DNA of 64,000 nt from Minisyncoccia bacterium (GCA_038256975.1 JBBSJU010000001.1:59087-123086), one strand, 5' to 3'. Shown: positions 5,320 to 62,112, numbered from the stretch's first letter. Numbers and translations are program-made. The notes: generated by a model from the sequence alone, not told the origin.

Positions 5320-7256
5320 TGTTCTTTGCGGTATACTGTCTGTATATGGCACCAGAGGATAAAAGTTCTAAACTCGAAGAAATACAGGAATCCTTATATG
5401 ATTCTACCCAAGCGCCAAAAAGCAACGTGCGCCGTATTATTCATGAACGTGAATTTGATGTTCCCGAAGGTTGGACTGGTGCCGACGATCAAGAGTCTCT
5501 TTTGAACGAAATTCCTGCTGAAGAGCGAGTGAATCATTCAAAAAAGATTCCTATTCTTGTACTGATTCTCTCTCTTGTTTTGTGTATAGCGGCGGGAGTA
5601 TTTGCATGGTACCGACTGAGTGGAGAGTCATCTGCAGTGTCTCAAAATCTCATCGCATTAGAATCTCAAGCGCCAGGCTTTATTGATGGGGGAGAAGAGT
5701 TTGATTATATTGTATCGCTTTCGAATCAGAACACCACAGAGTTGCAGCTTGTTGATCTTGAGGTCTCTTATCCGCAAGGAGTTGAAGACATTGCTACCTC
5801 TCGAATTGTAACAACGAAAGATGTTGGTACGGTTCTTCCAAATACAGTTGTTCAAGAAAAGTTCCCACTCACACTTTACGGTGTTCCAGGTACTACCAAG
5901 CCAATTACTACAACTTTAAGATATAGTGTTCCTGGATCAACGGCCACATTTGAAAAAAAAGAAACAAAAGTTGTAGAAATAAAATCATCTCCTCTTACGC
6001 TTACGGTGGATTCTTTAAAAGAGGTTACTCCAGGACAGATCATGAAGGTTAAGGTGCGTATCGAATCTACTCGAGGTAAAACAATTCAAAGCTCTCTCCT
6101 CAAGCTTACATATCCAACAGGATTTGAATTTGTGAGTGCGGATGTTGTACCAACTACAGGTAATAATGTTTGGGATTTGGGCGTACTTACTCCCGGGGTT
6201 GTGCGTGAAATTACTGTCTCTGGTATTGCGCGTGGTGAGGATGGAGAATCAAGGGCGATTCGTGCACAGATTGGCTCAAAAGATGCCTCTGGAATTGCTA
6301 TCGCGTCACTTTTTGCAGAATCTAATCTTTCCTATACGCTTGTAAAGCCATTTTTACAGACAGACATTTTGGTGGCAAATGTAAAAGCGGCGACACATGT
6401 AGTTTCTTCTGGTGCAGATGTCTCTGTTTTTGTCTCCTATAAAAACAATGTCGATAAAGATCTTCAAAATGCAGAAATCGCACTTACTTTAAACGGTGAT
6501 GCAATTATGGAAGAAACTGTCCGCGCAGATGGCGGTTTTTACGATTCACGAACAAATACCGTGACGTGGACAAGGTCTACAGTACGGGAACTTGCAAATC
6601 TTGAGCCAGGCGCGATAGGGAGACTCTCTGTTGTATTTAAAACAAAAAGCTCTATCTCGCTTGATACCAATGAAGAAATAAAGCTAGACGTAAGTGCAAA
6701 AGCTCGACGGGTAGGAGAAAGTCAGCTTGCTGAAACGGTGGTTAGCTCACAGAGCACACTTTTGCGAGTTGTTACTCGGGTTGCTCTTGTTGCAGAAAGT
6801 GCGCGTAGTGGAGGATCATTCTCTGTTTTCGGACCTGTACCTCCAAAAGGAGAACAAGAAACATCGTATGTGCTCATTTCTCAAATTAAAAATACCGTTA
6901 ACCCGATCGATCGAGCAGAGGTGAAATTCAAGCTTCCATTTAATGTTCGGTTTATTGCGGGTGAGGCGACCCAGGGAACGGTAACCTATAGTGAGTTTGA
7001 TAAACAGATTAAGTGGACCGCGGGGAGTGTGGTGAAATCAAGTGGAGGTGTTGATCCAGTGCTGTATGTGCATGTTGCGGTGATACCGTCACTTGTCGAT
7101 GTTGGGAAAAGTTCTACTCTTGCCACAGACTTTACTCTGACCGCAGTTGATATATTTACCAAGACATCACTGAGTGCAAAAGGCCCGAGTGTTATTACGA
7201 CAAAGTTTCGAATTAGTGATGGTTTTAAGAAAGGGGACGATCTTGTTACTCAGTAG
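5319..7256 (+). CDS. membrane-anchored surface protein with DUF11-like conserved repeat domains
   Basis: Single TM helix (IPILVLILSLVLCIAAGVFAWY) after a short cytoplasmic N-terminus. Beta-rich repeats with LTYPTGFEFVSAD...WDLGVLTPG and KLPFNVRFIAGEAT...WTAGSV patterns. Confidence 0.55.
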   Translation: MFFAVYCLYMAPEDKSSKLEEIQESLYDSTQAPKSNVRRIIHEREFDVPEGWTGADDQESLLNEIPAEERVNHSKKIPILVLILSLVLCIAAGVFAWYRLSGESSAVSQNLIALESQAPGFIDGGEEFDYIVSLSNQNTTELQLVDLEVSYPQGVEDIATSRIVTTKDVGTVLPNTVVQEKFPLTLYGVPGTTKPITTTLRYSVPGSTATFEKKETKVVEIKSSPLTLTVDSLKEVTPGQIMKVKVRIESTRGKTIQSSLLKLTYPTGFEFVSADVVPTTGNNVWDLGVLTPGVVREITVSGIARGEDGESRAIRAQIGSKDASGIAIASLFAESNLSYTLVKPFLQTDILVANVKAATHVVSSGADVSVFVSYKNNVDKDLQNAEIALTLNGDAIMEETVRADGGFYDSRTNTVTWTRSTVRELANLEPGAIGRLSVVFKTKSSISLDTNEEIKLDVSAKARRVGESQLAETVVSSQSTLLRVVTRVALVAESARSGGSFSVFGPVPPKGEQETSYVLISQIKNTVNPIDRAEVKFKLPFNVRFIAGEATQGTVTYSEFDKQIKWTAGSVVKSSGGVDPVLYVHVAVIPSLVDVGKSSTLATDFTLTAVDIFTKTSLSAKGPSVITTKFRISDGFKKGDDLVTQ

Positions 7257-20903: not shown

Positions 20904-21275
20904 TTAATGGAAGACCTGAGCTTTTATGTCGTTGTATGCATCACTTTGCGTGAGACACATAACAGCGACAGCTCTCAAGACATTCTGAAGCCGTGAAGCG
21001 TCGGCCATGTGTTTCCCCACAGTAAACGAAATGGGGTCGCCGTCTGCTTTGTGCCACTGATTGCACACATGTGGCTTACCACCGTGAGAGTTTTCGTCAC
21101 GATGATCATCGAAGACGACAAAACGAACATGCCCATCAGGAAACGTGCATCGCACGGTTACGCATCGCGAACTTTCCTTTACTAAGAACACGAACCCTTC
21201 CTTTTGAGCAAGTTCAAGCAGGTGGTCTGCGTTTTCGGAAAGAAAGTCGCTAAACGGGTGGTTAGCAGTCAGCAT
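20904..21275 (-). CDS. hypothetical protein (GC-elevated), His/Cys-containing
   Basis: Start chosen at MLTANHPF (GGAG 9 nt upstream); overlaps the upstream gene stop by 14 nt. Contains CTFPDGHVRFVVFDDHRDENSHGGKPHVCNQWH. Confidence 0.4.
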   Translation of the reverse strand: MLTANHPFSDFLSENADHLLELAQKEGFVFLVKESSRCVTVRCTFPDGHVRFVVFDDHRDENSHGGKPHVCNQWHKADGDPISFTVGKHMADASRLQNVLRAVAVMCLTQSDAYNDIKAQVFH

Positions 21276-21612
21276 AGTTGAGTACTCCATTCTGGGTCTC
21301 GAATTGGAACAAGACAGGGTTGAAGTCTTTGGGAGGGTCAACGATCACGTCGCAACAGTTTGCGAAGACAATCCGTCTTCCGTCGAACAGTTTTTTCTCG
21401 AGAACGTGTCGCATGCCGTCGGCAACAACACGCTTGATTTGTGCCGCAAGCGGAGTTGCGGGGTCTTCCTTGTGGTGGATACCCATACTCAGACCTTTGA
21501 ACCAGGCGAATGCCAGAGGAAGGTCTTTTTGGATTGCTCCGTAGAGTGTATCTTCCAGTTGTTCGACACTCATTCCGGTGGTGTCGACGTGAGCGATTGA
21601 AGGCAAGGACAT
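21262..21612 (-). CDS. hypothetical protein (GC-elevated)
   Basis: Start chosen at MSLPSIAHV (GGAG 7 nt upstream). No recognisable domain. Confidence 0.4.
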   Translation of the reverse strand: MSLPSIAHVDTTGMSVEQLEDTLYGAIQKDLPLAFAWFKGLSMGIHHKEDPATPLAAQIKRVVADGMRHVLEKKLFDGRRIVFANCCDVIVDPPKDFNPVLFQFETQNGVLNYADC

Positions 21613-21700
21613 GTCAGTTCTCCTAAGTGATATTGGGGTTGATGATGAAGGAACATTCGAACGCTTCACCTGTATGAATACAGGTGAAGCGTATAGAACA

Positions 21701-33878: not shown

Positions 33879-34673
33879 AGGCTCTATCACTCAAAAATGT
33901 TAAAAGAAAAACCAAACCAACCAAGCGCCTAACGATTCAAGTCTCTTGAGTTGTACCGCTTGCAAGAGCGGTTTTTCTTTTACTAAAAAAGTGGTGCGTT
34001 GTTTGACAATTCAATTCTGTTCCTCGGGTATTTATCCCAAAACAATTTGGGGTCTTTTCTCCCGAGGAAACAGGTTCATAAAAACAAAGTAAGAAGCATT
34101 ACAGATGAAAAAATAAAAGGTACATCTGTAATGAACATGTATACGTCTTGAGTGGTCAAGACAAGTACATTTGGTTTTTACATTTCCTAATAGGAATGTA
34201 TGGGCGTACGGTGGATGCCTTGGTTCTGACGAGCGATGAAGGACGTAGTCTGGCTGCGATAAGTTTCGGGGAGGTGCCAAACAACCTTTGATCCGGAAAT
34301 TTCCGAATGAGGAAACTCCATGTGAGTAATGTCATGTGATCCCGCAAGGGAAGCGAACCCGATGAAGTGAAACATCTCAGTAATCGGAGGAAAATAAACT
34401 AAACAAGTATTTCGTAAGTAGCGGCGAGCGAAAGCGAAGAAGCCCAAACCGTTTGTAGCAATACAGGCGGGGTTGTAGGGCAGAGATGTCAATTATGAGG
34501 AGAGTTACAAAACGTGTGTTTAAAAGAAGTGCCTGGAACGGCACGCCATAGATGGTGATAGCCCAGTATTTGAAAAACACATGTCTCTCTAGTCTCTGTT
34601 CCTGAGTAATTCTAGACACGAATAGCTAGGATGAATCCACCAGCACTAACTGGTAAGGCTAAATATTGTCAGA

Positions 34674-34715
<42 letters not shown>

Positions 34716-35406
34716 GTCCGAAAGGACAGTGAAATAGACCTGAACCCGTATGCCTACAAGGAGTCAGAGCGGATATTTATATCCGTCATGGCGTGCCTAT
34801 TGAAGAATGAGCCAACGAGTTTTTATGTGCAGCTGGCTAAGGAAGAGAAACTTCTGGAGCCACAGGGAAACCGAGTGTTAATAGCGCGAAATTATAGTTG
34901 CACATAAAAGACCCGAAGCCAGAAGAGCTTACCATGAGCAGGGTGAAGTATTTCGAAAGAAGTATGGAGGCCCGAACCCGTAGATCGTTCAACTTCTTGG
35001 GATGACTTGTGGTAAGGAGTGAAAAGCTAATCGATTCTGGTAATAGCTGGTTCTCTCCGAAATAGTTTTAGGACTAGCGTCGCGTGTTCCTCTGAGGGGT
35101 AGAGCACTGGAAGGGTTCAACAGGGAGCAATCTCGTGAACCCTATCAAACTCCGAATACTCAGTAGTCAAGAACGCGGCAGTAAGACCGTGGGGGCGAAG
35201 CTTCACAGGTCAAAAGGGAAACAGCCCTGATCTCCAGTTAAGGTCCCAAAGTATATGCTAAGTGCAAAGTGAGGAGGTGAAATTTCGTAGACAATGAGGA
35301 TGTTGGCTTAGAAGCAGCCATCATTGAAAGATAGCGTAACAGCTCACTCATCGAGAGATTTTGCGCCACAGATAATCGGGGCTCAAGCATATCACCGAAA
35401 CTGAGG

Positions 35407-35549
35407 GCTTGTAGATTTCATACAGGATTTTGTGTGACATAGTGTTAGTGGATAGCACGTCACAAAATAGTGGAGGCTTCCGTTCGATTCGGAACTCACA
35501 CAAATTCTGTCACAACTGCATAGTTGTGTCCTGTATGAAATCTATAAGC
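35407..35549 (+). other. ~140-nt intervening/expansion stem-loop in 23S at the helix-45 position
   Basis: GCTTGTAGATTTCATACAGG ... CCTGTATGAAATCTATAAGC is a 20-bp stem. It replaces the short E. coli hairpin GCGGCAGCGACGCUUAUGCGUUG between CACCGAAGCUG and GGUAGGGGAGCGUUC. Confidence 0.5.
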
Positions 35550-36305
35550 GGTAGGAGAGTGTTCCGCTCTGCGTTGAAGTAGAAGGGGTGACCCACTATG
35601 GAGCGTGCGGAAGTACAAATGTTGGCACAAGTAACCACAATGTGGGTGAGATCCCCACACGTCGAAAGAACAAGGTTTTCTTCGCCATGATAATCATCGA
35701 AGAGTTAGTCGGCCCTAAGGGAATGGCTCGCGCCGGACCCGATGGACAAAAGGTTAATATTCCTTTACTTCTTTATACAGCGATGGGAGGACGAAGGGCA
35801 GTAACATACGCATATCAATGGATTTGTGTTTGTATTGTGAGGGAGCATTCTAGGTAAATCCGGGTGCTGATTTAAATATCGATTCCAAGCAATGCATAAA
35901 CCGGCGGGGCAACCCAAAGGAATGTATGTGAGCGCGCTTCCAAGAAAAGTCTCTAGCTTCAACGATAATACCGTTGAAATCTCTTCTTTTTTCGCTCTTT
36001 ATTGAGTGAAATGAGAAGGGAAATATGTATAGTGAAACCGTACCGCAAACCGACACAGGTGTTCAGGTCGAGTAGACCAAGACGAACGAGTGATTGATCC
36101 CCAAGGAACTCGGCAAAAAAGCAGCCGTAAGTTAGCAATAAGGCTTGCCCGTAGCAATACGGGCCGCAGCGAAAGTTTCCCTGGCAACTGTTTACCAAAA
36201 ACACAGCTCCCTGCGAACTCGTAAGAGTATGTATAGGGGGTGACACCTGACCAATGCCAGAAGGTCAAATATCGGTGGTCGCAAGGCTGACTGATATAAG
36301 CCCTG

Positions 36306-36346
<41 letters not shown>

Positions 36347-37004
36347 GTTCCTTGTCTGGTAAGTTCAGACGCGCACGAATGGTGTAATGACTGGGGAACT
36401 GTCTCGGGGATTAGCTCGGTGAAAATACAATACCGGTGAAGATGCCGGTTACCTGCAGTTAGACGAAAAGACCCCAGGAGCTTTACTGCAACTTGATATT
36501 GAAAATACGTTTGTGATGCGTAGCATAGGTGGGAGAGGTTGAAGTCACGGTCTCGGCTGTGATGGACTCGAAATATGAAATACCACTCTTCAAACGGGTA
36601 TGCACTAACGTGTTTAAGAAAATTTTACGCAGACAGTATCTGGCGGGTAGTTTTACTGGGGCGGTACCCTCCTAAAGGGTAACGGAGGGGTTTATTAAGG
36701 TCAGTTAGGTGTGAATGGAAACCATACCGATAGTGTAAGGGCATAAACTGGCTTTACTGTAAGACGGGCATGTCAAGCAGTTGCGAAAGCAGAACCTAGT
36801 GAACCGATGGTTCGCATTAGACGCGACCGAAGATTAACGGATAGAAGCTACTCTGGGGATAACAGGCTAGTTCCGCCTAAGAGTTCATATCGACGGCGGA
36901 GTTCGGCACCTCGATGTCGGCTCATCTTATCCTGGTGGTGAAGAAGCTACCAAGGGTATGGCTGTTCGCCATTTAAAAAGATACGCGAGCTGGGTTCAAA
37001 CCGT

Positions 37005-37318
37005 AGAGGAGGTAATTGCAAAGACGTTCCAAGTTTTTGTAATTGGCTTCTCTTAGTTTGAACCCGAGGGTTAAGACTAAACTTAACAAAAAGACATCAA
37101 TCACGGCGGTGTGTTGTAGTGATACAACATGACAAGTCAACTAATATCGGGAAAATCCTATTCGTAGGACAATTCCGAGGGAACTTTATGCAAATAAAGA
37201 CCCGTAGAGACTATACGTTGGCACACTTACATAAAAAATAAGTGCAAGCTCTAGTCCGATCCCTTCAGTAATGAAGGTTCTTGCAACCGAGACCACGGCA
37301 AGATATAAAACTGAAATG
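37005..37318 (+). other. putative group I intron (~314 nt, no ORF) in 23S domain V
   Basis: Interrupts GGGTTCAAACCGT|...|CGTGAGACAGGTTGG (E. coli GGGUUUAGAACGUCGUGAGACAG). 5' exon ends in U and the insert ends in G. Internal AGACTAAA ... TAGTCC resembles the P7 GACUA/UAGUC pair. Confidence 0.55.
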
Positions 37319-37369
37319 CGTGAGACAGGTTGGTCTCCTATCTACTGCAGGCGTTGATATTTGAGGATA

Positions 37370-37401
<32 letters not shown>

Positions 37402-37922
37402 GAACCTCTGGTGTAAGGGCTCTGGCGCCAGCCGGACCGCCCTGTAGCTATGTTCGGAACGGATAACTTCTGAAAGCATCTAAGAAGGAAGCCGCATCCA
37501 AGATAAGATATCGTTATTAGGGTCGTAAGAGATGATTACGTTGATAGGCTTTAGGTGTAAGTGCAGTAATGCATTCAGCCGAGAAGTACTAATTACCCGA
37601 ATTCCTATTAGGAAATGTGAAAACCAATGTCAGATAAATTGTTTTAAATGAAAAGAAGGGAGGGTCCGCCCTCCACACAAGGTGTATGTGCAGACTTTGT
37701 GTGGAGGGCGGAAGAAGCGAAGGTTTTACTGTTTGCTTGTCGATGTCCGTATTCCTAGGCTTCTATGCCGCGAGGAAAAGGTCTTCTGATGACAACCATT
37801 GTCAGTAAAAACGAGCATGCCTCCTTCAGGGACTGGTGTTCCGTACGAGACTCCGCCATGTGCGTATGTCTCTCGGTCGGGTGTAAGCTCAACACCAGTC
37901 ACCCCCTTCTTTGTTCTTTGTG

Positions 37923-38022: not shown

Positions 38023-38099
38023 GGGAGACGTAGCTCAACACTTAGAGCGCATGTGGCGTTCCCACGTGAGGGTTGAGGGTGAAAATCCCTTCGTCTCCT
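38023..38099 (+). ncRNA. tRNA-like element (possible degenerate tRNA; nominal anticodon GUU)
   Basis: Cloverleaf possible: acceptor GGAGACG/CGTCTCC, D-arm GCTC..GAGC. But the anticodon loop GCGUUCC lacks U33 and a purine at 37, and the T-loop UGAAAAU lacks T-Psi-C. Confidence 0.3.
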
Positions 38100-44213: not shown

Positions 44214-45272
44214 ATGCAAGGGAAGACCATTTTTATTACTGGCGGTGCTGGATATGTGGGTGCAATGCTGTGCGACCAATTTTCCAAACGTGCTGATGTC
44301 GAAAAAGTTATCACTATCGACAAAGAACCAGAAACAGATCTGACAAAAGGCAATGCAAAGATTTTGTATATACAACAAAATCTCGCCGATGATGGGTGGC
44401 AGACTATTATTAATGAGCATAAGCCGTCGATTATTATCCATACCGCCTGGCAAATTCGCGAAATCTATGGCAATCGGCCACTTTCTTGGAAATGGAATAT
44501 TGAAGGGTCGGACAAGGTGTTTGATTTTGCTTTTTCACACGAATATGTAGAGCGCCTTACGCATTTTTCTACAGTGGCTTCCTATGGTGCATTTGCCGAA
44601 AATACACTTGAGCATCGTTTTACTGAGAATGAATCATTTCGCAAAACAAACTACCTATATGCTGAGGAGAAACGTATAGCAGAAGAACATCTGCAAGAAA
44701 AATATCAAGAACTCAAAAAACAAGGGAAAAAACTCCCTCAGGTTTCGATTATTCGCCCAGCCGCTATCACCGGCCCCCGGGGTCGTTACGAACGTATTCG
44801 TTTTGGGCTATATGGTATTTTAAAAAATCAACTCAAACAAAGCTTCATTCACCGAGCTCTTTCGTATGTAACAGTATTTGTTCCAGTAACTAAAAAATGG
44901 TTGCGCCAATATGTTCATGAAGATGATATTACTGATATTGTCGAGCTTCTTTCATTTGGAAATGTAAGTCATGAATATGAAGCATTTAATGCCTCTCCAT
45001 CTGGTAGTGTGATTCTCGCCAAAGATATGGCTCGCATTGTTGGTAAGACTCCTGTGCGTATTCATCCATATTTGATTCGGGGTGCATTCTTCTTTTTTTG
45101 GCATCTAACCCGAGGGAGAATTCCAACAGCAGAGGGAAGTTGGAAAGGGTATTCATATCCGATTGCGGTTGACGGCTCAAAAATCACAAAAATGTATGAT
45201 TATCAGTACAAAATGTCTTCAACTGAAGCGTTTGTAAAAAATGAGGGGAGGTACAAGGTTGATCTTTCATAA
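44214..45272 (+). CDS. NAD-dependent epimerase/dehydratase family protein
   Basis: GKTIFITGGAGYVGAMLCDQ Rossmann GxxGxxG motif at the N-terminus. Confidence 0.75.
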   Translation: MQGKTIFITGGAGYVGAMLCDQFSKRADVEKVITIDKEPETDLTKGNAKILYIQQNLADDGWQTIINEHKPSIIIHTAWQIREIYGNRPLSWKWNIEGSDKVFDFAFSHEYVERLTHFSTVASYGAFAENTLEHRFTENESFRKTNYLYAEEKRIAEEHLQEKYQELKKQGKKLPQVSIIRPAAITGPRGRYERIRFGLYGILKNQLKQSFIHRALSYVTVFVPVTKKWLRQYVHEDDITDIVELLSFGNVSHEYEAFNASPSGSVILAKDMARIVGKTPVRIHPYLIRGAFFFFWHLTRGRIPTAEGSWKGYSYPIAVDGSKITKMYDYQYKMSSTEAFVKNEGRYKVDLS

Positions 45273-45275
45273 GTA

Positions 45276-45305
45276 TTGACAAGTATCGTATATCCATGTT
45301 ATAAT
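45276..45305 (+). promoter_or_regulatory. consensus sigma70-type promoter
   Basis: TTGACA - 18 nt - TATAAT. Confidence 0.5.
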
Positions 45306-45332
45306 ACAAGAAGTCAAAAAGCTCTTTAAAAC

Positions 45333-45505
45333 AAGGTTTGCCCTAGCTTTAAGTACTCAAACTCCGCAGGAACACAAAGGAAATGCACACGTTCTCGCTT
45401 TGCAAAGCGAGCCGCTCCGCTCGATGAATTTTCTACTAAAAATTCATCTGCGCGAGGCATTTCCTTTGTGTCTTGCTTCGTTTCAGTTTTGAATGTTTAA
45501 AGCTA
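45333..45505 (+). repeat. structured repeat element family B copy 2 (78-nt core at 45373-45450 nested in two closing stems)
   Basis: Core is near-identical to 13404-13482. Inner stem CACAAAGGAA/TTCCTTTGTG; outer stem AAGGTTTGCCCTAGCTTTAA/TTAAAGCTATGGCAAACCT. Confidence 0.5.
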
Positions 45506-45575
45506 TGGCAAACCTGCAAGATTGCAGTTTAGGTCCGCTAGCAGAAGCACACGTGCTTCAAAATGGAGAAAAGAC

Positions 45576-46229
45576 ATGTCTTATTCTTTCGAACAAGTCG
45601 CCCAACTCGTCAACAAATTGAAAAAGATGGGTTGGGGCCCCGAGTGTGTCACGGCACTCGGACAAGCCGACACTCGAAAGTTCCGTGCCATCGAGACGAT
45701 TCTCGAGGGCAAGACCCTCGAGGAAGCAATCAAAGCTGCCGTCGCGATGAAAGTGGATGTGCTCGCCGATGACACTTCCCACTTGCGCTTTCTCGAATCG
45801 GTGGAGCTCGCCCCGACTTCAGGCAAGGTGACACTTGCTCAGTCGAGCGACATTTTTAACGTGGACCTCAACTTCAAGAATTGGGGCACCGATAAGTCGG
45901 GAAGCGATACTCAGGGACAAACGGCACTGATCTACGAGATGAAGAAAGACGGCACTTTCGTCGCTCTCTTCAACTCGTTCGGAGCCGACCTCTCGAGCCT
46001 TGTGTGGCAACAAGGTCAGATTCGTGAGTTCTGTGCTTCGCACCGCCACCTTCTCTGTCAGGATGGTTACGGCACTTTCTTCCTCTTCGAGGTCGACAAG
46101 AAGCTGTTCGTTGCCGACGTGATCGTGGGTGGCGGCAGGCTCTGCGCCGATGTCCGCCGCGTTTCGGACGACGGCGTCTGGGGTGCCGCCTTTCGTCGTC
46201 GGTTGGTGGTACCGCAACAGACCATTTGA
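45576..46229 (+). CDS. hypothetical protein encoded in a GC-rich (~57% GC) islet
   Basis: GGAG 7 nt upstream of ATG; 217 aa with no recognisable domain. Long antisense ORFs overlapping it are attributed to the high GC. Confidence 0.5.
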   Translation: MSYSFEQVAQLVNKLKKMGWGPECVTALGQADTRKFRAIETILEGKTLEEAIKAAVAMKVDVLADDTSHLRFLESVELAPTSGKVTLAQSSDIFNVDLNFKNWGTDKSGSDTQGQTALIYEMKKDGTFVALFNSFGADLSSLVWQQGQIREFCASHRHLLCQDGYGTFFLFEVDKKLFVADVIVGGGRLCADVRRVSDDGVWGAAFRRRLVVPQQTI

Positions 46230-46257
46230 TTTTTTGCTCTAAACCTTTGAATCTTTG

Positions 46258-46306
46258 TCCCTTGGACCCTTTCGATTTGTTTCGGAAGGGTCCAAGGGAT
46301 TTTTTG
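46258..46306 (+). terminator. strong intrinsic terminator
   Basis: GTCCCTTGGACCCTT tcgatttgtttcgg AAGGGTCCAAGGGATTTTTTG. Confidence 0.7.
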
Positions 46307-46484
46307 TATACTGTATACGCATGAAGAAAATGATGCGGAATGTCTCCGAGAAAAATGTTGCTTCCTACAAAGGGATGTTGGGGTGGGGGAATGGGTGGGG
46401 GTTGGAGCAGGTGCTTGAAAAAGCAACGCTGGGGGATCTTTTATAGACTTGTGTTTTTGTGGTTTTTGTGTAATTATATGCCCC

Positions 46485-47135
46485 ATGATTACACTTTCAG
46501 CCACGACGCGAGACGCGTTCCCATCAGTCGAAAAAGCACGTGAAGCCGGATTCATTCCTGCTGTATTTTACGGTTCACACAAAGCATCGACTTCTATTTT
46601 TGTTTCTCAAGCTCTTTTTACTAAAACTCTTAAAGATGCTGGAGAGTCAACGCTAATCACTATTGATACTGGTTCTGAAAAAGTATCAGTCCTGATTCAT
46701 GATGTGCAGTTTGACCCAGTAACAGACCGAGCGCTTCATGTTGACTTCTATGCAGTTGATGCAAACGAGAAACTAGAAGTTGGAGTGAAACTTGAGTTCG
46801 TCGGAGTTTCTGAAGCAGTGAAGAGTCTTGGTGGAACATTGGTGAAAGTAGCACATGAACTTGAAGTGAAGTGTCTTCCTAAAGATCTTCCTCATGAAAT
46901 CGTTGTTGATATCTCGAAACTCGAGAATCTCGATAGCGTTATTACCGTTGCCGACCTTACACTTCCATCCGGAGTAGTTGCAAAAGCATCTGCGGAAGAA
47001 GTTATCGCATCAATTGCTGTTGGAAAAGAAGAAGATCTTTCAGCTCCAGTTGCAGGCCCTGATCTTGAGGCTATTGAAGTAGAAAAGAAGGGTAAGAAGG
47101 ATGAAGAGGGCACAGAAACCCCCGCTGCGGAATAA
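46485..47135 (+). CDS. rplY: 50S ribosomal protein L25 / general stress protein Ctc
   Basis: MITLSATTRDAFPSVEKAREAGFIPAVFYG... L25 beta-barrel plus acidic C-terminal extension. Confidence 0.8.
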   Translation: MITLSATTRDAFPSVEKAREAGFIPAVFYGSHKASTSIFVSQALFTKTLKDAGESTLITIDTGSEKVSVLIHDVQFDPVTDRALHVDFYAVDANEKLEVGVKLEFVGVSEAVKSLGGTLVKVAHELEVKCLPKDLPHEIVVDISKLENLDSVITVADLTLPSGVVAKASAEEVIASIAVGKEEDLSAPVAGPDLEAIEVEKKGKKDEEGTETPAAE

Positions 47136-47207
47136 GTTTTTAGGTCACATCTATAAAAAACAGCCGTTACTATGAGTATAGACGGCTGTTTTGCTATACT
47201 AAAAATT

Positions 47208-48551
47208 ATGAATATTCCTTTGAAAGTTTTTTTGATTGCACTTTTGTTTGCGAGCGTTCTTTCTCCGAAGCTTTCAAACGCCCAGCAAGCGTGTCCAACA
47301 GCAAGTCCTGAAAAGGAAATTTGTGAGGCAAAATTGCGTGAAGAACTAGCAAAAGTTGAAGCAGAAATTGCCGAGAAACAAAGCCAAATTAAAGAGACAC
47401 AGGCTGAGGCAAAAACCCTAAAAGGTGATATTTCGGTGTTGAACAATAAGATAGATCAGTCTGCTTTGAAGATTAAATCTCACGGTATTGTCATTACTAA
47501 GATCAGCGGTGAGATTACAACGAAACAAAGTACAATACAGCAACTTGATCAAAAGCTCGACAGGCAGCGTGCTGCACTTGCTCAGATACTACGTCGCAGT
47601 GAAGAGATTGAAAAAACTTCTCTTATTGAGGGCGCACTCAGGAAACAAACACTCTCTGATTTTGTGTCGCAAGCAGAGGAATATCGCTTAGTAAAGCTTG
47701 CTATGAAAGATACTTTTGAAGAAGTAAAAGAAACAAAAGAAGAAACACAGGAAGTAAAAGAGTCTCTTGAGACAAAGAAAACTGAGCAAGAAAAATTAAA
47801 GATTCAGCAAGAAGTTGAACGAAAAAAGGCTGAACAAAACAAACAGGTAAAAGCGGTCGTACTAAAAGAAACACAAGGAAAGGAAAGTGAGTACCAAAAA
47901 GATCTTAAAGAAAAACAAGCAAAGGCTGCGGCAATTCGAAATGCTCTTTTTGCCCTTCGTGACGCAAGTGCGATTAAGTTTGGCGACGCACTTGCATATG
48001 CAAATGAAGCATTTGAGATTACCGGTGTTCGCCCAGCATTTATTCTAGCTATCCTTACTCAGGAATCAAACTTAGGGAAAAATACAGGACGCTGTTATTT
48101 GAAAAATGTAGATGGTTCTGGGGTAAACACAAGTGGCACTGTATTTAAAAATGTCATGAGTCCAACGCGTGACGTACCTCCATATTTGGAAGTTGCAAAG
48201 GAACTTGGTTTTGATCCGTTCGAACGACTTATTTCGTGCCCACTTAATGTTGGTTGGGGTGGCGCGATGGGACCAGCACAGTTCATTGCATCAACATGGA
48301 ACGGGTACAAGGCGAAGGTTGCAGCCGCTGAAGGTAAAGCAATAGCAAACCCATGGTTACCACGAGACGCCATTATGGCATCTGCTTTTCTTCATAAAGA
48401 TAACGGTGCCGTGACCGATGAACGTAACGCTGCCTGTCGATACTACTCAGGACGGTCATGTTCGAGTGTTTCAAATTCGTATGGAAATAGCGTTGTGGCC
48501 CTTGCCAAGAAGATTCAAGCTGAGCAGATTAACCCGTTGCAAGGCTTCTAG
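47208..48551 (+). CDS. secreted coiled-coil protein with C-terminal lysozyme-like / lytic-transglycosylase-like domain
   Basis: Signal peptide and long coiled coil. C-terminal AILTQESNLGKNTGRCY...WGGAMGPAQFIASTW resembles the SLT catalytic-Glu context. Confidence 0.5.
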   Translation: MNIPLKVFLIALLFASVLSPKLSNAQQACPTASPEKEICEAKLREELAKVEAEIAEKQSQIKETQAEAKTLKGDISVLNNKIDQSALKIKSHGIVITKISGEITTKQSTIQQLDQKLDRQRAALAQILRRSEEIEKTSLIEGALRKQTLSDFVSQAEEYRLVKLAMKDTFEEVKETKEETQEVKESLETKKTEQEKLKIQQEVERKKAEQNKQVKAVVLKETQGKESEYQKDLKEKQAKAAAIRNALFALRDASAIKFGDALAYANEAFEITGVRPAFILAILTQESNLGKNTGRCYLKNVDGSGVNTSGTVFKNVMSPTRDVPPYLEVAKELGFDPFERLISCPLNVGWGGAMGPAQFIASTWNGYKAKVAAAEGKAIANPWLPRDAIMASAFLHKDNGAVTDERNAACRYYSGRSCSSVSNSYGNSVVALAKKIQAEQINPLQGF

Positions 48552-60363: not shown

Positions 60364-62112
60364 TTACAGAGCTCTATTTTTTATTTCTTGTGTAAGTGTT
60401 TGTGTGAAATCTTCTATAGAAATATTTTCAATTTTACTTCCATCGCGTTTTTCTACAGTGAGCATCTTACTTTCGACTTCTTTATCACCAAGCACAATCA
60501 CATAAGGCACTTTGTCTGTCTTGGCATTACGAATGCGTTTGCCAAGCGAGTCATTTGAAGCGTCGAGCTCAACACGAATATCTGCGTCTTTGAGACCCTT
60601 GTATACCATGTCTGCAAATTCTGTTTGACGTTCACCGATAGGCACGACACGAACCTGAACAGGGGAAAGCCATGTCGGAAATGCGCCCGCGAAATGTTCA
60701 ATGGCAACAGCGAGGAATCGCTCAAAGGATCCCATGATAGCGCAGTGAATCATTACTACGCTTTCTTTCTCGCCTTTTTCATTGATACACGTAAGCTCAA
60801 ATCGTTCTGGTTGAACAAAGTCGAGCTGAATAGTTGCCACCTGTAACTTTCTTCCGATAGCATCTTTTGCAATAAAGTCGATTTTTGGTCCGTAGAAGGC
60901 TGCTTCACCTGGGCCATCAATATATTCTGCACCAAAGTTTTTCAGGATGACATCTTTTAATTTATTTTCAGCAATCTCCCAATTTTCCACTTTCCCAAGA
61001 TATTTCTCTGGAGTGGCAAGGTCTCGACGGGATAGTCGGGGAGTAAGTATGAACCCAAATTTAGAGTAGAAAGTTTCAATAATTTCCCAAATAGATTTTA
61101 CCTCATCTTCAATTTGGTTTACACGACAAAACACATGGGCATCGTCTTGGGTGATAGAAATAACACGCGAGAGACCAGAAAGTTCGCCAGTTTGTTCGTC
61201 TCGATAGACCATTGTACTTTCGGCGTATCTTTGAGGCATGTCTCGATACGACCGCTGTTCTGAGTCAAAAATTTGTGTATGGTGCGGACAGTTCATTGGC
61301 TTCATTGCAAACACGTGTCCATCTCTTGTGTTTATCTTAAACAAATCTTCAGCATATTTTGCCCAATGCCCACTTTTTTCATAGAGACTTTGTTTGGTTA
61401 TGTGAGGAATAACTACTTTGCCATAGCCGCGGGTTTTTCGGAGGCTCCACACAAAGTCTTGAAGTTCTTCACGAATAATTGTTCCTTTTGGTGTCCAGAG
61501 AGGAAGCCCTCCTCCAATGAGATCAGAAAAAATAAACAAGCCAAGTTCTTTTCCGAGTTTTCTATGGTCTCGTTTTTTTGCTTCCTCTTGTTGAGTAATG
61601 TACGCGTCAAGCTCTGTTTTGGTATCAAAAGCAAGTCCATACACACGAGTAAGCATCGGATTCTTTTCGTCACCACGCCAATATGCACCTGCAATTTTTT
61701 CCAGTTTGAAACTCTCTGGATCGATATCTTTTAAATCTTCTACGTGTCCACCCCGGCAAAGATCGGTAAACCAGTCTGTTGTATAAAGAGTTATCGCTTC
61801 ATCTTTTTCTGCAATTTCTTTTATCAACTCTGATTTGTAGGGATTGTTCGCAAAGTGGGCGAGCGCTTCATCTTTCGAAACTTCTTTATGTGAAAAGTTC
61901 GCGCCTTTGCGGACGATTTTCTGCATTGCTTTTGTCAGATCCTTCAAATTATCTTCTGTTGGTTTTTTTGCCCCAAAATCAATGTCGTAATAGAAACCAG
62001 TATCAATAGCAGGTCCGAGGGTTAGTTTTGCCTCTGGATAGGCCTGTAGTATTGCCATGGCAAGGACATGGGCGAGGGAGTGGCGTTTGTTGTTTAAGGC
62101 TGTGTTTTCCAT
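60364..62112 (-). CDS. thrS: threonine--tRNA ligase (lacks N-terminal TGS domain)
   Basis: MENTALNNKRHSLAHVLAMAILQAYPEAKLTLGPAIDTGFYYD (second additional/editing domain) and class II core; start taken at MENT, not the upstream in-frame ATG. Confidence 0.9.
   Translation of the reverse strand: MENTALNNKRHSLAHVLAMAILQAYPEAKLTLGPAIDTGFYYDIDFGAKKPTEDNLKDLTKAMQKIVRKGANFSHKEVSKDEALAHFANNPYKSELIKEIAEKDEAITLYTTDWFTDLCRGGHVEDLKDIDPESFKLEKIAGAYWRGDEKNPMLTRVYGLAFDTKTELDAYITQQEEAKKRDHRKLGKELGLFIFSDLIGGGLPLWTPKGTIIREELQDFVWSLRKTRGYGKVVIPHITKQSLYEKSGHWAKYAEDLFKINTRDGHVFAMKPMNCPHHTQIFDSEQRSYRDMPQRYAESTMVYRDEQTGELSGLSRVISITQDDAHVFCRVNQIEDEVKSIWEIIETFYSKFGFILTPRLSRRDLATPEKYLGKVENWEIAENKLKDVILKNFGAEYIDGPGEAAFYGPKIDFIAKDAIGRKLQVATIQLDFVQPERFELTCINEKGEKESVVMIHCAIMGSFERFLAVAIEHFAGAFPTWLSPVQVRVVPIGERQTEFADMVYKGLKDADIRVELDASNDSLGKRIRNAKTDKVPYVIVLGDKEVESKMLTVEKRDGSKIENISIEDFTQTLTQEIKNRAL

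Follow-up and report, generated by a model that had tools for sequence, protein, structure and literature searches.

Diversity-generating retroelements (DGRs) include a clade restricted to Patescibacteria (clade 2), whose targets lack recognisable domains according to passages of Roux et al. (2021, PMC8144416), and passages of Wu et al. (2018, PMC5758913) delimit a 'CPR set' of DGRs (CPR, candidate phyla radiation) and describe DGRs with multiple targets. We analysed a stretch of 64,000 nt from a Minisyncoccia bacterium (GCA_038256975.1, JBBSJU010000001.1:59087-123086; hereafter the window, with positions counted from its first letter) in which a GC-rich islet holds a gene for a protein of 217 residues. 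An initial annotation made from the sequence alone had pointed out this islet, recognised no motif in its protein and taken its composition as a sign of recent horizontal acquisition. Comparison with relatives makes it very probable that the islet is a decayed DGR cassette of a Patescibacteria-specific lineage, in which an orphaned variable-protein gene has been left with a deletion scar. Four features carry this reading, with VR and TR denoting the variable and template repeats, RT the reverse transcriptase and L numbers the loci of relatives:

45273-46446, plus strand: the whole inserted accessory segment (the presumed decayed DGR cassette), between the stop codon of an epimerase gene and the upstream region of the L25 gene, recognised from the empty site in L035.
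45576-46229, plus strand: gene for the DGR variable (target) protein, 217 residues from its ATG, recognised from DGR-linked relatives, a hidden Markov model (HMM) family, an AlphaFold2 model and the ratio of nonsynonymous to synonymous substitution rates (dN/dS).
46104-46222, plus strand: VR, codons 177-216, recognised from similarity to the L006 TR and the pattern of adenine sites.
46324-46446, plus strand: RT pseudogene remnant comprising the last ~40 codons and the stop and holding a G-run with a G-quadruplex (G4) motif, recognised by tblastn and DNA alignment to L006.

Relatives of the gene are linked to DGRs

At the loci encoding P0008 and P0002, two proteins that are 49% and 86% identical to the 217-residue protein, the gene is followed by an opposite-strand bAvd gene and an RVT_1 reverse transcriptase, and its last ~110 nt recur ~440 nt downstream with 87% identity as a VR/TR pair. 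The Avd protein of L006 matches the NCBIfam model "diversity-generating retroelement protein Avd" (DivGenRetAVD) with E = 6e-20. All core mismatches between the VR, which takes up the final ~118 nt of the gene in relatives, and the TR fall at TR adenines in L004 and L006, and a downstream copy with core mismatches solely at its adenines is the defining VR/TR signature of a DGR. Such pairs, at 78-91% identity, are present at L004, L006, L010, L011, L013, L019, L021, L026/27 and L029, which come from Saccharibacteria, Paceibacterota and metagenomes, and homologues linked to a TR, avd and RT were found at L004, L006, L011, L013 and L021, among others. The L006 TR contains six AAC and three AAT codons, and 28 of the 30 adenines in it occupy first or second codon positions. 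Locus L021 (3058-6650) combines two different targets in one cassette, each with its own leader, trailer and TR, so that two VR/TR pairs share a single avd and RT. The protein that the initial annotation could not place does lack any Pfam, PHROGs or NCBIfam match, with Pfam also blank for all 25 family members, but it is functionally identifiable as a DGR variable protein.

The window copy has a mutagenised variable repeat and a deletion scar

The window VR is 80.7% identical to the L006 TR, with 22 of 27 mismatches at TR adenines and the remaining five in the region of the 3' end. Comparison with the L006 VR gives 17 core differences, 17/17 at TR-adenine sites and none at the other 88 positions, all of which lie in codon position 1 or 2 and none of which is synonymous. 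The adenine fraction is 0.12 in the 3'-terminal 154 nt of the gene (VR included) as compared to 0.25 in the L006 TR. The window VR bears the signature of adenine mutagenesis and was diversified before the DGR machinery was lost.

That machinery is missing from the window. No second copy of the gene or of the VR that would represent a TR occurs anywhere in the 64 kb, a tblastn search of the same 64 kb with two Avd proteins gave only noise, and no RT match was found there besides a C-terminal stub, so that the locus lacks the adjacent intact RT, the TR and the avd of a complete (autonomous) DGR. With no local machinery left, the VR is now a frozen allele. The stub was detected by tblastn with the L006 RT (residues 248-286), which aligns to window 46324-46440 with 59% identity over 39 residues (E = 2e-11; translation KKMMRNVSEKNVASYKGMLGWGNGWGLEQ... 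in the window, KRKMLRNVSEKNIASYKGMLEWGKGWKIQ... in L006). At the DNA level, window 45451-46324 corresponds to L006 1-874 (89% identity) and window 46327-46398 to L006 2488-2559 (90% identity), and L006 875-2487 (~1613 bp), into which the position of the L006 TR falls, is missing in the window. This collinearity with only one gap indicates a clean deletion of ~1613 bp that removed the TR, avd and the RT codons to approximately residue 247. A short microhomology, TAnGCAC, is present at both L006 breakpoints.

The RT stub also accounts for the G-rich run that the initial annotation had placed at 46379-46404. A canonical G4 motif does exist in an overlapping position, 46372-46401, and is the sole one on either strand of the 64 kb, which is what could be said for a functional G-quadruplex with a regulatory or recombination role at 46372-46404. 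However, the run is an in-frame part of the RT remnant (...KGMLGWGNGWGLE... as compared to ...KGMLEWGKGWKIQ... in L006) that encodes G-M-L-G-W-G-N-G-W-G, so its guanines belong to Trp and Gly codons. The G-tracts at the same position in L006 are non-canonical and four other intact RTs of the clade have unrelated, G-poor sequence there, leaving no conservation of G-tracts independent of coding. Mononucleotide shuffles gave a mean of 0.245 G4 motifs per window against the one observed, and the single motif is thus no strong statistical outlier. We therefore rejected the motif as a significant feature and consider a functional G-quadruplex highly improbable.

The segment is accessory and its flanks are syntenic

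In L035, the closest relative found (epimerase 92% identical), the L25 gene begins within 50 nt of the epimerase stop codon, with window 44222-45263 matching L035 5003-6044 and window 46445-47264 matching L035 6061-6881. This empty site, the kind of relative without the segment that the initial annotation had proposed to look for, shows that segment 45273-46446 is accessory. It begins at the -35 box of the cassette promoter and finishes with the RT stub's stop codon, precisely the bounds of a DGR cassette. At L006 the same cassette (DNA 89% identical) adjoins a different gene, rplE. The inference of horizontal acquisition is thus borne out as far as an accessory insertion goes, but the composition of the islet, as laid out below, is no evidence of recency. 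The sharp compositional break in a metagenome-derived contig might also have arisen from a chimeric assembly or contamination. Both flanks, however, are syntenic with L035 and L036, which argues against a chimera, the corresponding site of L036 bears a promoter and leader of homologous sequence, and relatives of the cassette occur in many independent Patescibacteria assemblies, making the probability of an artefact next to negligible.

What occupies the epimerase/L25 site differs between lineages. In L036 (epimerase 80% identical), the homologous promoter and leader are followed by an unrelated GC-rich open reading frame (ORF) of 230 residues that belongs to another large Patescibacteria family with 1731 matches. 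At L039, a member of this second family has a VR/TR pair (87.6% identity) beside avd and RT, with a similar leader and trailer. The L036 locus itself (GCA_039809305.1, JBDHUT010000002.1; region 6100-7000) carries its DGR-target-family gene without RT or avd nearby. Separately, many members of this second target family lie on contigs of ~1 kb, which would fit assembly breaks at hypervariable or repeated cassettes. A simple scenario would be an ancestral multi-target DGR at the epimerase/L25 site that decayed differently in each lineage, with an exchange of cassettes as the alternative to differential decay. Partial decay is also seen elsewhere in the family: L028 (402-1657) retains only a C-terminal RT stub and neither TR nor avd, L010 (6001-7300) has kept TR and avd, but no RT could be detected in the surrounding 5 kb, and at six dereplicated loci a DGR is absent from the neighbouring 4-6 kb.

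We also observed an 11-nt direct repeat with one mismatch exactly at both segment ends (45261-45271, GATCTTTCATA, and 46435-46445, GATCTTTTATA). It could be a target duplication, a site of recombination or microhomology, or a chance match, given that repeats of such length are common in the region.

High GC content is a trait of the target genes

The compositional contrast reported in the initial annotation is real. In sliding windows of 400 nt, GC content reaches 0.55-0.57 over 45600-46199 as compared to 0.36-0.43 in the flanks, and the gene at 45576-46229 (654 nt) has a GC content of 0.557 against a window mean of 0.416 (standard deviation 0.028, z = 5.1). It thereby tops the window, in which the highest value of any other 654-nt stretch in the 64 kb is 0.506. 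GC content at third codon positions (GC3) is 0.677 for this gene, and the 36 host ORFs of at least 200 residues have a median of 0.33 and a maximum of 0.40.

A rival explanation would be an ordinary recent island from a GC-rich donor whose composition still reflects that donor, drift towards the host value being incomplete, and for which the retroelement is irrelevant. The absence of the insertion from L035 would agree with this, as would a GC3 far beyond the host range, and passages of Wu et al. (PMC5758913) treat a GC content that deviates by 5% or more as indicating that a DGR was transferred recently. Yet target genes exceed the GC content of their hosts at all examined loci except L031, a short fragment (hosts 0.37-0.53, targets 0.45-0.65), and in 4/4 intact cassettes measured the target also exceeds the accompanying avd and RT (target, avd and RT at 0.53, 0.32 and 0.43 in L006 and at 0.62, 0.47 and 0.48 in L013). 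Since co-transferred genes should share the composition of their donor and avd and RT do not match the targets, the excess belongs to the targets themselves. The unrelated second target family is likewise GC-rich relative to its hosts (0.53 and 0.385 in L036, 0.61 and 0.46 in L039, 0.62 and 0.41 in L040), and the VR signature and RT stub tie the window gene to a DGR. High GC content is an intrinsic trait of the target gene family and no mark of recent arrival, and the donor explanation appears very unlikely. As a caution, an island of deviating composition in a CPR genome may represent a DGR target with intrinsically high GC content and no clock for horizontal transfer.

Two other causes of the GC excess were considered. 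Gene-wide leakage of adenine mutagenesis was rejected because third-position A (0.14 vs 0.30) and T (0.20 vs 0.36) are both roughly halved, meaning that depletion is not adenine-specific, and it is C that gains most. Translational selection is unlikely because the adjoining genes for ribosomal proteins and release factor 1 (RF1) have a GC3 of only 0.28-0.35.

The target protein and its family

The ORF reported at 45576-46229 on the plus strand stands as annotated, and its start codon context is conserved among relatives as GAAGACATGTCT. Long spurious ORFs are present as had been noted, with 45819-46217 (132 residues) and 46067-46555 (162 residues) on the opposite strand. The protein comprises a helical N-terminal region (residues ~1-57) and a conserved C-terminal domain of ~150 residues. 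A word-indexed search returned 25 relatives, all of them unnamed proteins from Patescibacteria or metagenomes, and a profile (HMM) search of 1.84 billion cluster representatives returned 2318 proteins at E <= 0.001. Conservation across the family resides in the C-terminal ~150 residues and the N-termini are variable. By the origin of these sequences the family appears to be confined to Patescibacteria, and because the viral contigs of IMG/VR yielded no relative of the target gene, there is no evidence for a phage origin.

AlphaFold2 modelling with an alignment of 25 sequences gave a mean predicted local distance difference test (pLDDT) score of 84.7, with block means mostly >90 (87-97) for residues 71-210. 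The model shows helices in the N-terminal part and an alpha/beta arrangement in the C-terminal domain, where the VR makes up a beta-hairpin, a loop and the final strand. A PDB sequence search with the family profile found nothing under E = 0.15, and a Foldseek search with the model found no significant match in PDB or BFVD. The 217-residue sequence has no signal peptide or hydrophobic segment, and the protein is probably cytoplasmic and probably a ligand binder, with a binding domain that may be lectin-like.

Outside the VR (codons 1-176), dN/dS relative to L006 is 0.21 (dS 0.245), with differences mainly at third positions, which indicates that purifying selection has acted during most of the period since the divergence of the window and L006 copies. 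Given also that the ORF is intact and the promoter described below is perfect, the target gene is probably still expressed as a frozen allele.

Promoter, leader and trailer of the cassette

The gene is embedded in the following elements:

45276-45305, plus strand: sigma-70 promoter, TTGACA-18 nt-TATAAT with an extended -10 TG (12/12 consensus positions), by sequence match.
45334-45515, plus strand: leader helix P1, a long hairpin, by folding and covariation.
45514-45527, plus strand: small helix P2, CTGCAAGATTGCAG, from sequence and alignment A2.
45531-45542, plus strand: conserved single-stranded AGGxCCGCTAGC (AGGCCCGCTAGC; CCCGCTAGC stretch), from sequence and alignment A2.
45544-45559, plus strand: palindrome or hairpin P3, GAAGCACACGTGCTTC, from sequence and alignment A2.
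45565-45569, plus strand: Shine-Dalgarno sequence GGAGA, from sequence.
46243-46265, plus strand: tandem CTTTGA/CCTTTG-like repeats of 7-8 nt that reach the left hairpin arm, from the 16-locus alignment A3.
46257-46306, plus strand: GC-rich hairpin and T-run, predicted intrinsic terminator of the target gene, by folding and conservation.
46307-46326, plus strand: remnant of a putative promoter and 5' end of the TR RNA (GTATACTGTATACGCA) with the deletion junction, by alignment to L006.

Throughout the family, a promoter close to consensus precedes a ~150-nt leader with the three elements P1, P2 and P3. The equivalent promoter TTGAC...TATTAT stands at the same place in relatives, and cassette homology at L015 and L016 starts at the -35 box. 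In the window, P1 has been enlarged to 182 nt by an apical insertion bearing two extra hairpins. The base of P1 is conserved (TTTRCCATAGC / GCTATGGYAAA, also given as TTTGCCxTAGC / GCTATGGCAAA), and the window helix folds with a minimum free energy of -98.5 kcal/mol (z = -7.6). Across the 15 loci of alignment A2, both partners have changed in a compensatory manner in 11/18 consensus pairs, and the frequent G-U pairs of the plus strand point to an RNA structure. The leader precedes DGR targets of at least three unrelated families, and it is unmatched in Rfam 15 (no relevant hits at E <= 5 over 44800-47000 or at gathering thresholds window-wide).

The three-element leader (window 45306-45575) was also seen in L002, L004, L009-L013, L015-L017, L019-L022, L036, L039 and L040. 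A second leader of the expanded type lies at L036 10584-10850, where it is 78% identical to window 45414-45513 and precedes another GC-rich ORF. A possible second leader copy in the window was dismissed, as the only other match to GCTATGGCAAA (61417-61427, minus strand) is a chance occurrence inside a threonyl-tRNA synthetase ORF.

Downstream of the gene, the terminator of the initial annotation is present with its T-run, though its stem is slightly longer than the quoted 15 bp. We count 19 pairs (10 of them G-C) at 46257-46300 around a 6-nt loop, TTTGTT, followed by TTTTTT, so that a GC-rich stem-loop with a U-run follows the stop codon as predicted for an intrinsic terminator. This hairpin is kept in DGR-bearing and orphan loci alike (16-locus alignment A3), with compensatory changes in 5/9 consensus pairs and frequent U-G pairs on the plus strand. 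The restriction of G-U pairs to one strand and the T-run fit an RNA terminator better than a DNA cruciform. Rfam returned only chance microRNA-like hits for it. Two to four CTTTGA-like repeats separate the stop codon from the hairpin in intact and orphan cassettes alike, and they could be a binding site for a protein or the RT. After the terminator, intact loci share a conserved GTATACT...GCCACAGATA...TTTCAACGGTTACGGC motif, a putative promoter and 5' end of the TR RNA, and it is there that the window deletion starts. The 12/12 promoter, the 182-nt structured leader and the coding origin of the G-run had no place in the initial annotation.

Probable course from an active DGR to a frozen allele

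The intact cassette of relatives runs in the order of a strong promoter, a structured leader, the target gene ending in its VR, CTTTGA repeats, a terminator hairpin, a putatively separate TR RNA, an opposite-strand avd and the RT. In relatives that have kept this order, Avd-RT would reverse-transcribe the TR RNA and misincorporate nucleotides opposite adenines, and the resulting cDNA would overwrite the VR and thereby recode ~16 codons of the AAC/AAT/GAC type in the C-terminal strands and loop. In the present genome, the deletion of ~1.6 kb took the TR, avd and the RT codons to ~247, and left the promoter, the leader, an intact target gene, the terminator and an RT stub of ~40 codons.

A different outcome would be that only the local DGR is dead and that the gene is still an active target in trans of a second DGR elsewhere in the genome, whose matching TR would resemble CTGTTCGTTGCCAACGTGAACGTGGATGAC... 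and which would rely on the hairpin and on the surviving 3' terminus of the VR. This terminus (GGTTGGTGGTAC...) is indeed intact, as are the hairpin and the CTTTGA repeats, a DGR is missing next to many members of the family (L008 and L009, two copies from a single metagenome-assembled genome, among them), and the L021 cassette with its two targets and two TRs as well as the multi-target DGRs described in passages of PMC5758913 provide precedents. However, RT, avd and TR are all absent from the rest of the 64 kb, nothing speaks positively for a second element, and CPR genomes are small. We infer that no trans-acting DGR exists elsewhere in the genome and regard service in trans as distinctly unlikely.

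Three points weigh against the decayed and frozen cassette as we have described it. The 64 kb cover only part of a 167-kb contig and the genome is larger, so that a second DGR with a matching TR may exist elsewhere; expression of the target gene is itself something we infer from sequence features; and the gene-wide GC excess is unaccounted for by DGR biology as now known.

Regarding the last point, we offer a broader conjecture that in its entirety is rather unlikely. The promoter, the three-helix leader, the GC-rich ORF and the trailer of CTTTGA repeats and hairpin might constitute a modular target cassette of the Patescibacteria DGR clade, shared by at least three unrelated target families (the present one, that of L036/L039 and the second L021 target). 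The leader might then act in cis as a hitherto undescribed RNA by which hypervariable genes are controlled or marked, the GC excess might be upheld by a retroelement-linked process (e.g., biased repair after cDNA integration) and not by donor ancestry, and orphans might be exchanged between sites or serviced in trans.

As a decayed DGR cassette, a GC-rich gene of obscure nature becomes interpretable as the fossil of targeted hypermutation in an ultra-small bacterium, with a deletion scar that can still be read. The lineage repeatedly sheds its mutagenic machinery and keeps the diversified gene under purifying selection, which looks like diversification followed by the fixation of one allele. 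With more than 2300 cluster representatives and neither a Pfam model nor a confident structural match, the family may widen the range of scaffolds known to tolerate DGR variation. The analysis also brings to notice a covariation-supported leader RNA that no Rfam model matches.

Other features of the window

A second GC-rich patch lies at 20904-21669 on the minus strand (GC content 0.50 in 21001-21500) and contains two small overlapping ORFs of 145 and ~116-135 residues, neither of them matched significantly by Pfam; the patch might be a further accessory cassette or a pair resembling a toxin-antitoxin system. The 23S rRNA match at 34188-37612 covers 3425 nt as compared to the 2925 positions of the model, and the ~500 nt extra may be insertions or introns. 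A weak Rfam tRNA match at 38024-38099 (38.4 bits), located between tRNA-Ala and the 5S rRNA, was not reported by ARAGORN.

Comparison with known systems

Guo et al. (2011, PMC3240598) describe, in the passages on the subject, a hairpin or cruciform after the VR that is needed for DGR retrohoming, with a GC stem of 7-10 bp and a 4-nt GRNA loop located 4-34 bp after the VR, and liken it to terminator-like stem-loops. The trailer hairpin of the present family resembles this element, as far as those passages describe it, in its location and in being a GC-rich inverted repeat soon after the VR whose structure is kept while its sequence varies. It differs from the same description in that family stems have 13-19 bp, loops of 3-8 nt or more do not conform to GRNA, ~35 nt separate the VR from the stem, a T-run follows and G-U pairs occur on one strand only. 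With its 19-bp stem, TTTGTT loop and distance of ~35 nt, the window hairpin falls outside the form given by Guo et al.

The keyword-matched passages of DGR papers make no mention of a conserved structured leader or of GC-rich targets. In the present lineage, avd lies on the opposite strand and the TR appears to form a small transcription unit of its own between target and avd. As portrayed in the passages cited above, the DGRs of Patescibacteria and the CPR share with the relatives studied here a C-terminal VR, a TR with A-to-N differences, an Avd protein and a group-II-like RT, as well as Patescibacteria hosts and targets without a recognisable domain, signal peptide or transmembrane segment. 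The window differs from them in having lost its TR, avd and most of its RT. The variable proteins of DGRs with a C-type lectin fold (Mtd of phage BPP-1, TvpA (2Y3C), archaeal AvpA and TaqVP) are also among the closest known systems. Overall, the locus represents a known kind of system, an orphaned DGR variable-protein gene, and its residual interest lies in the leader RNA, the family-wide GC excess of the targets and a protein family with an unmatched fold.
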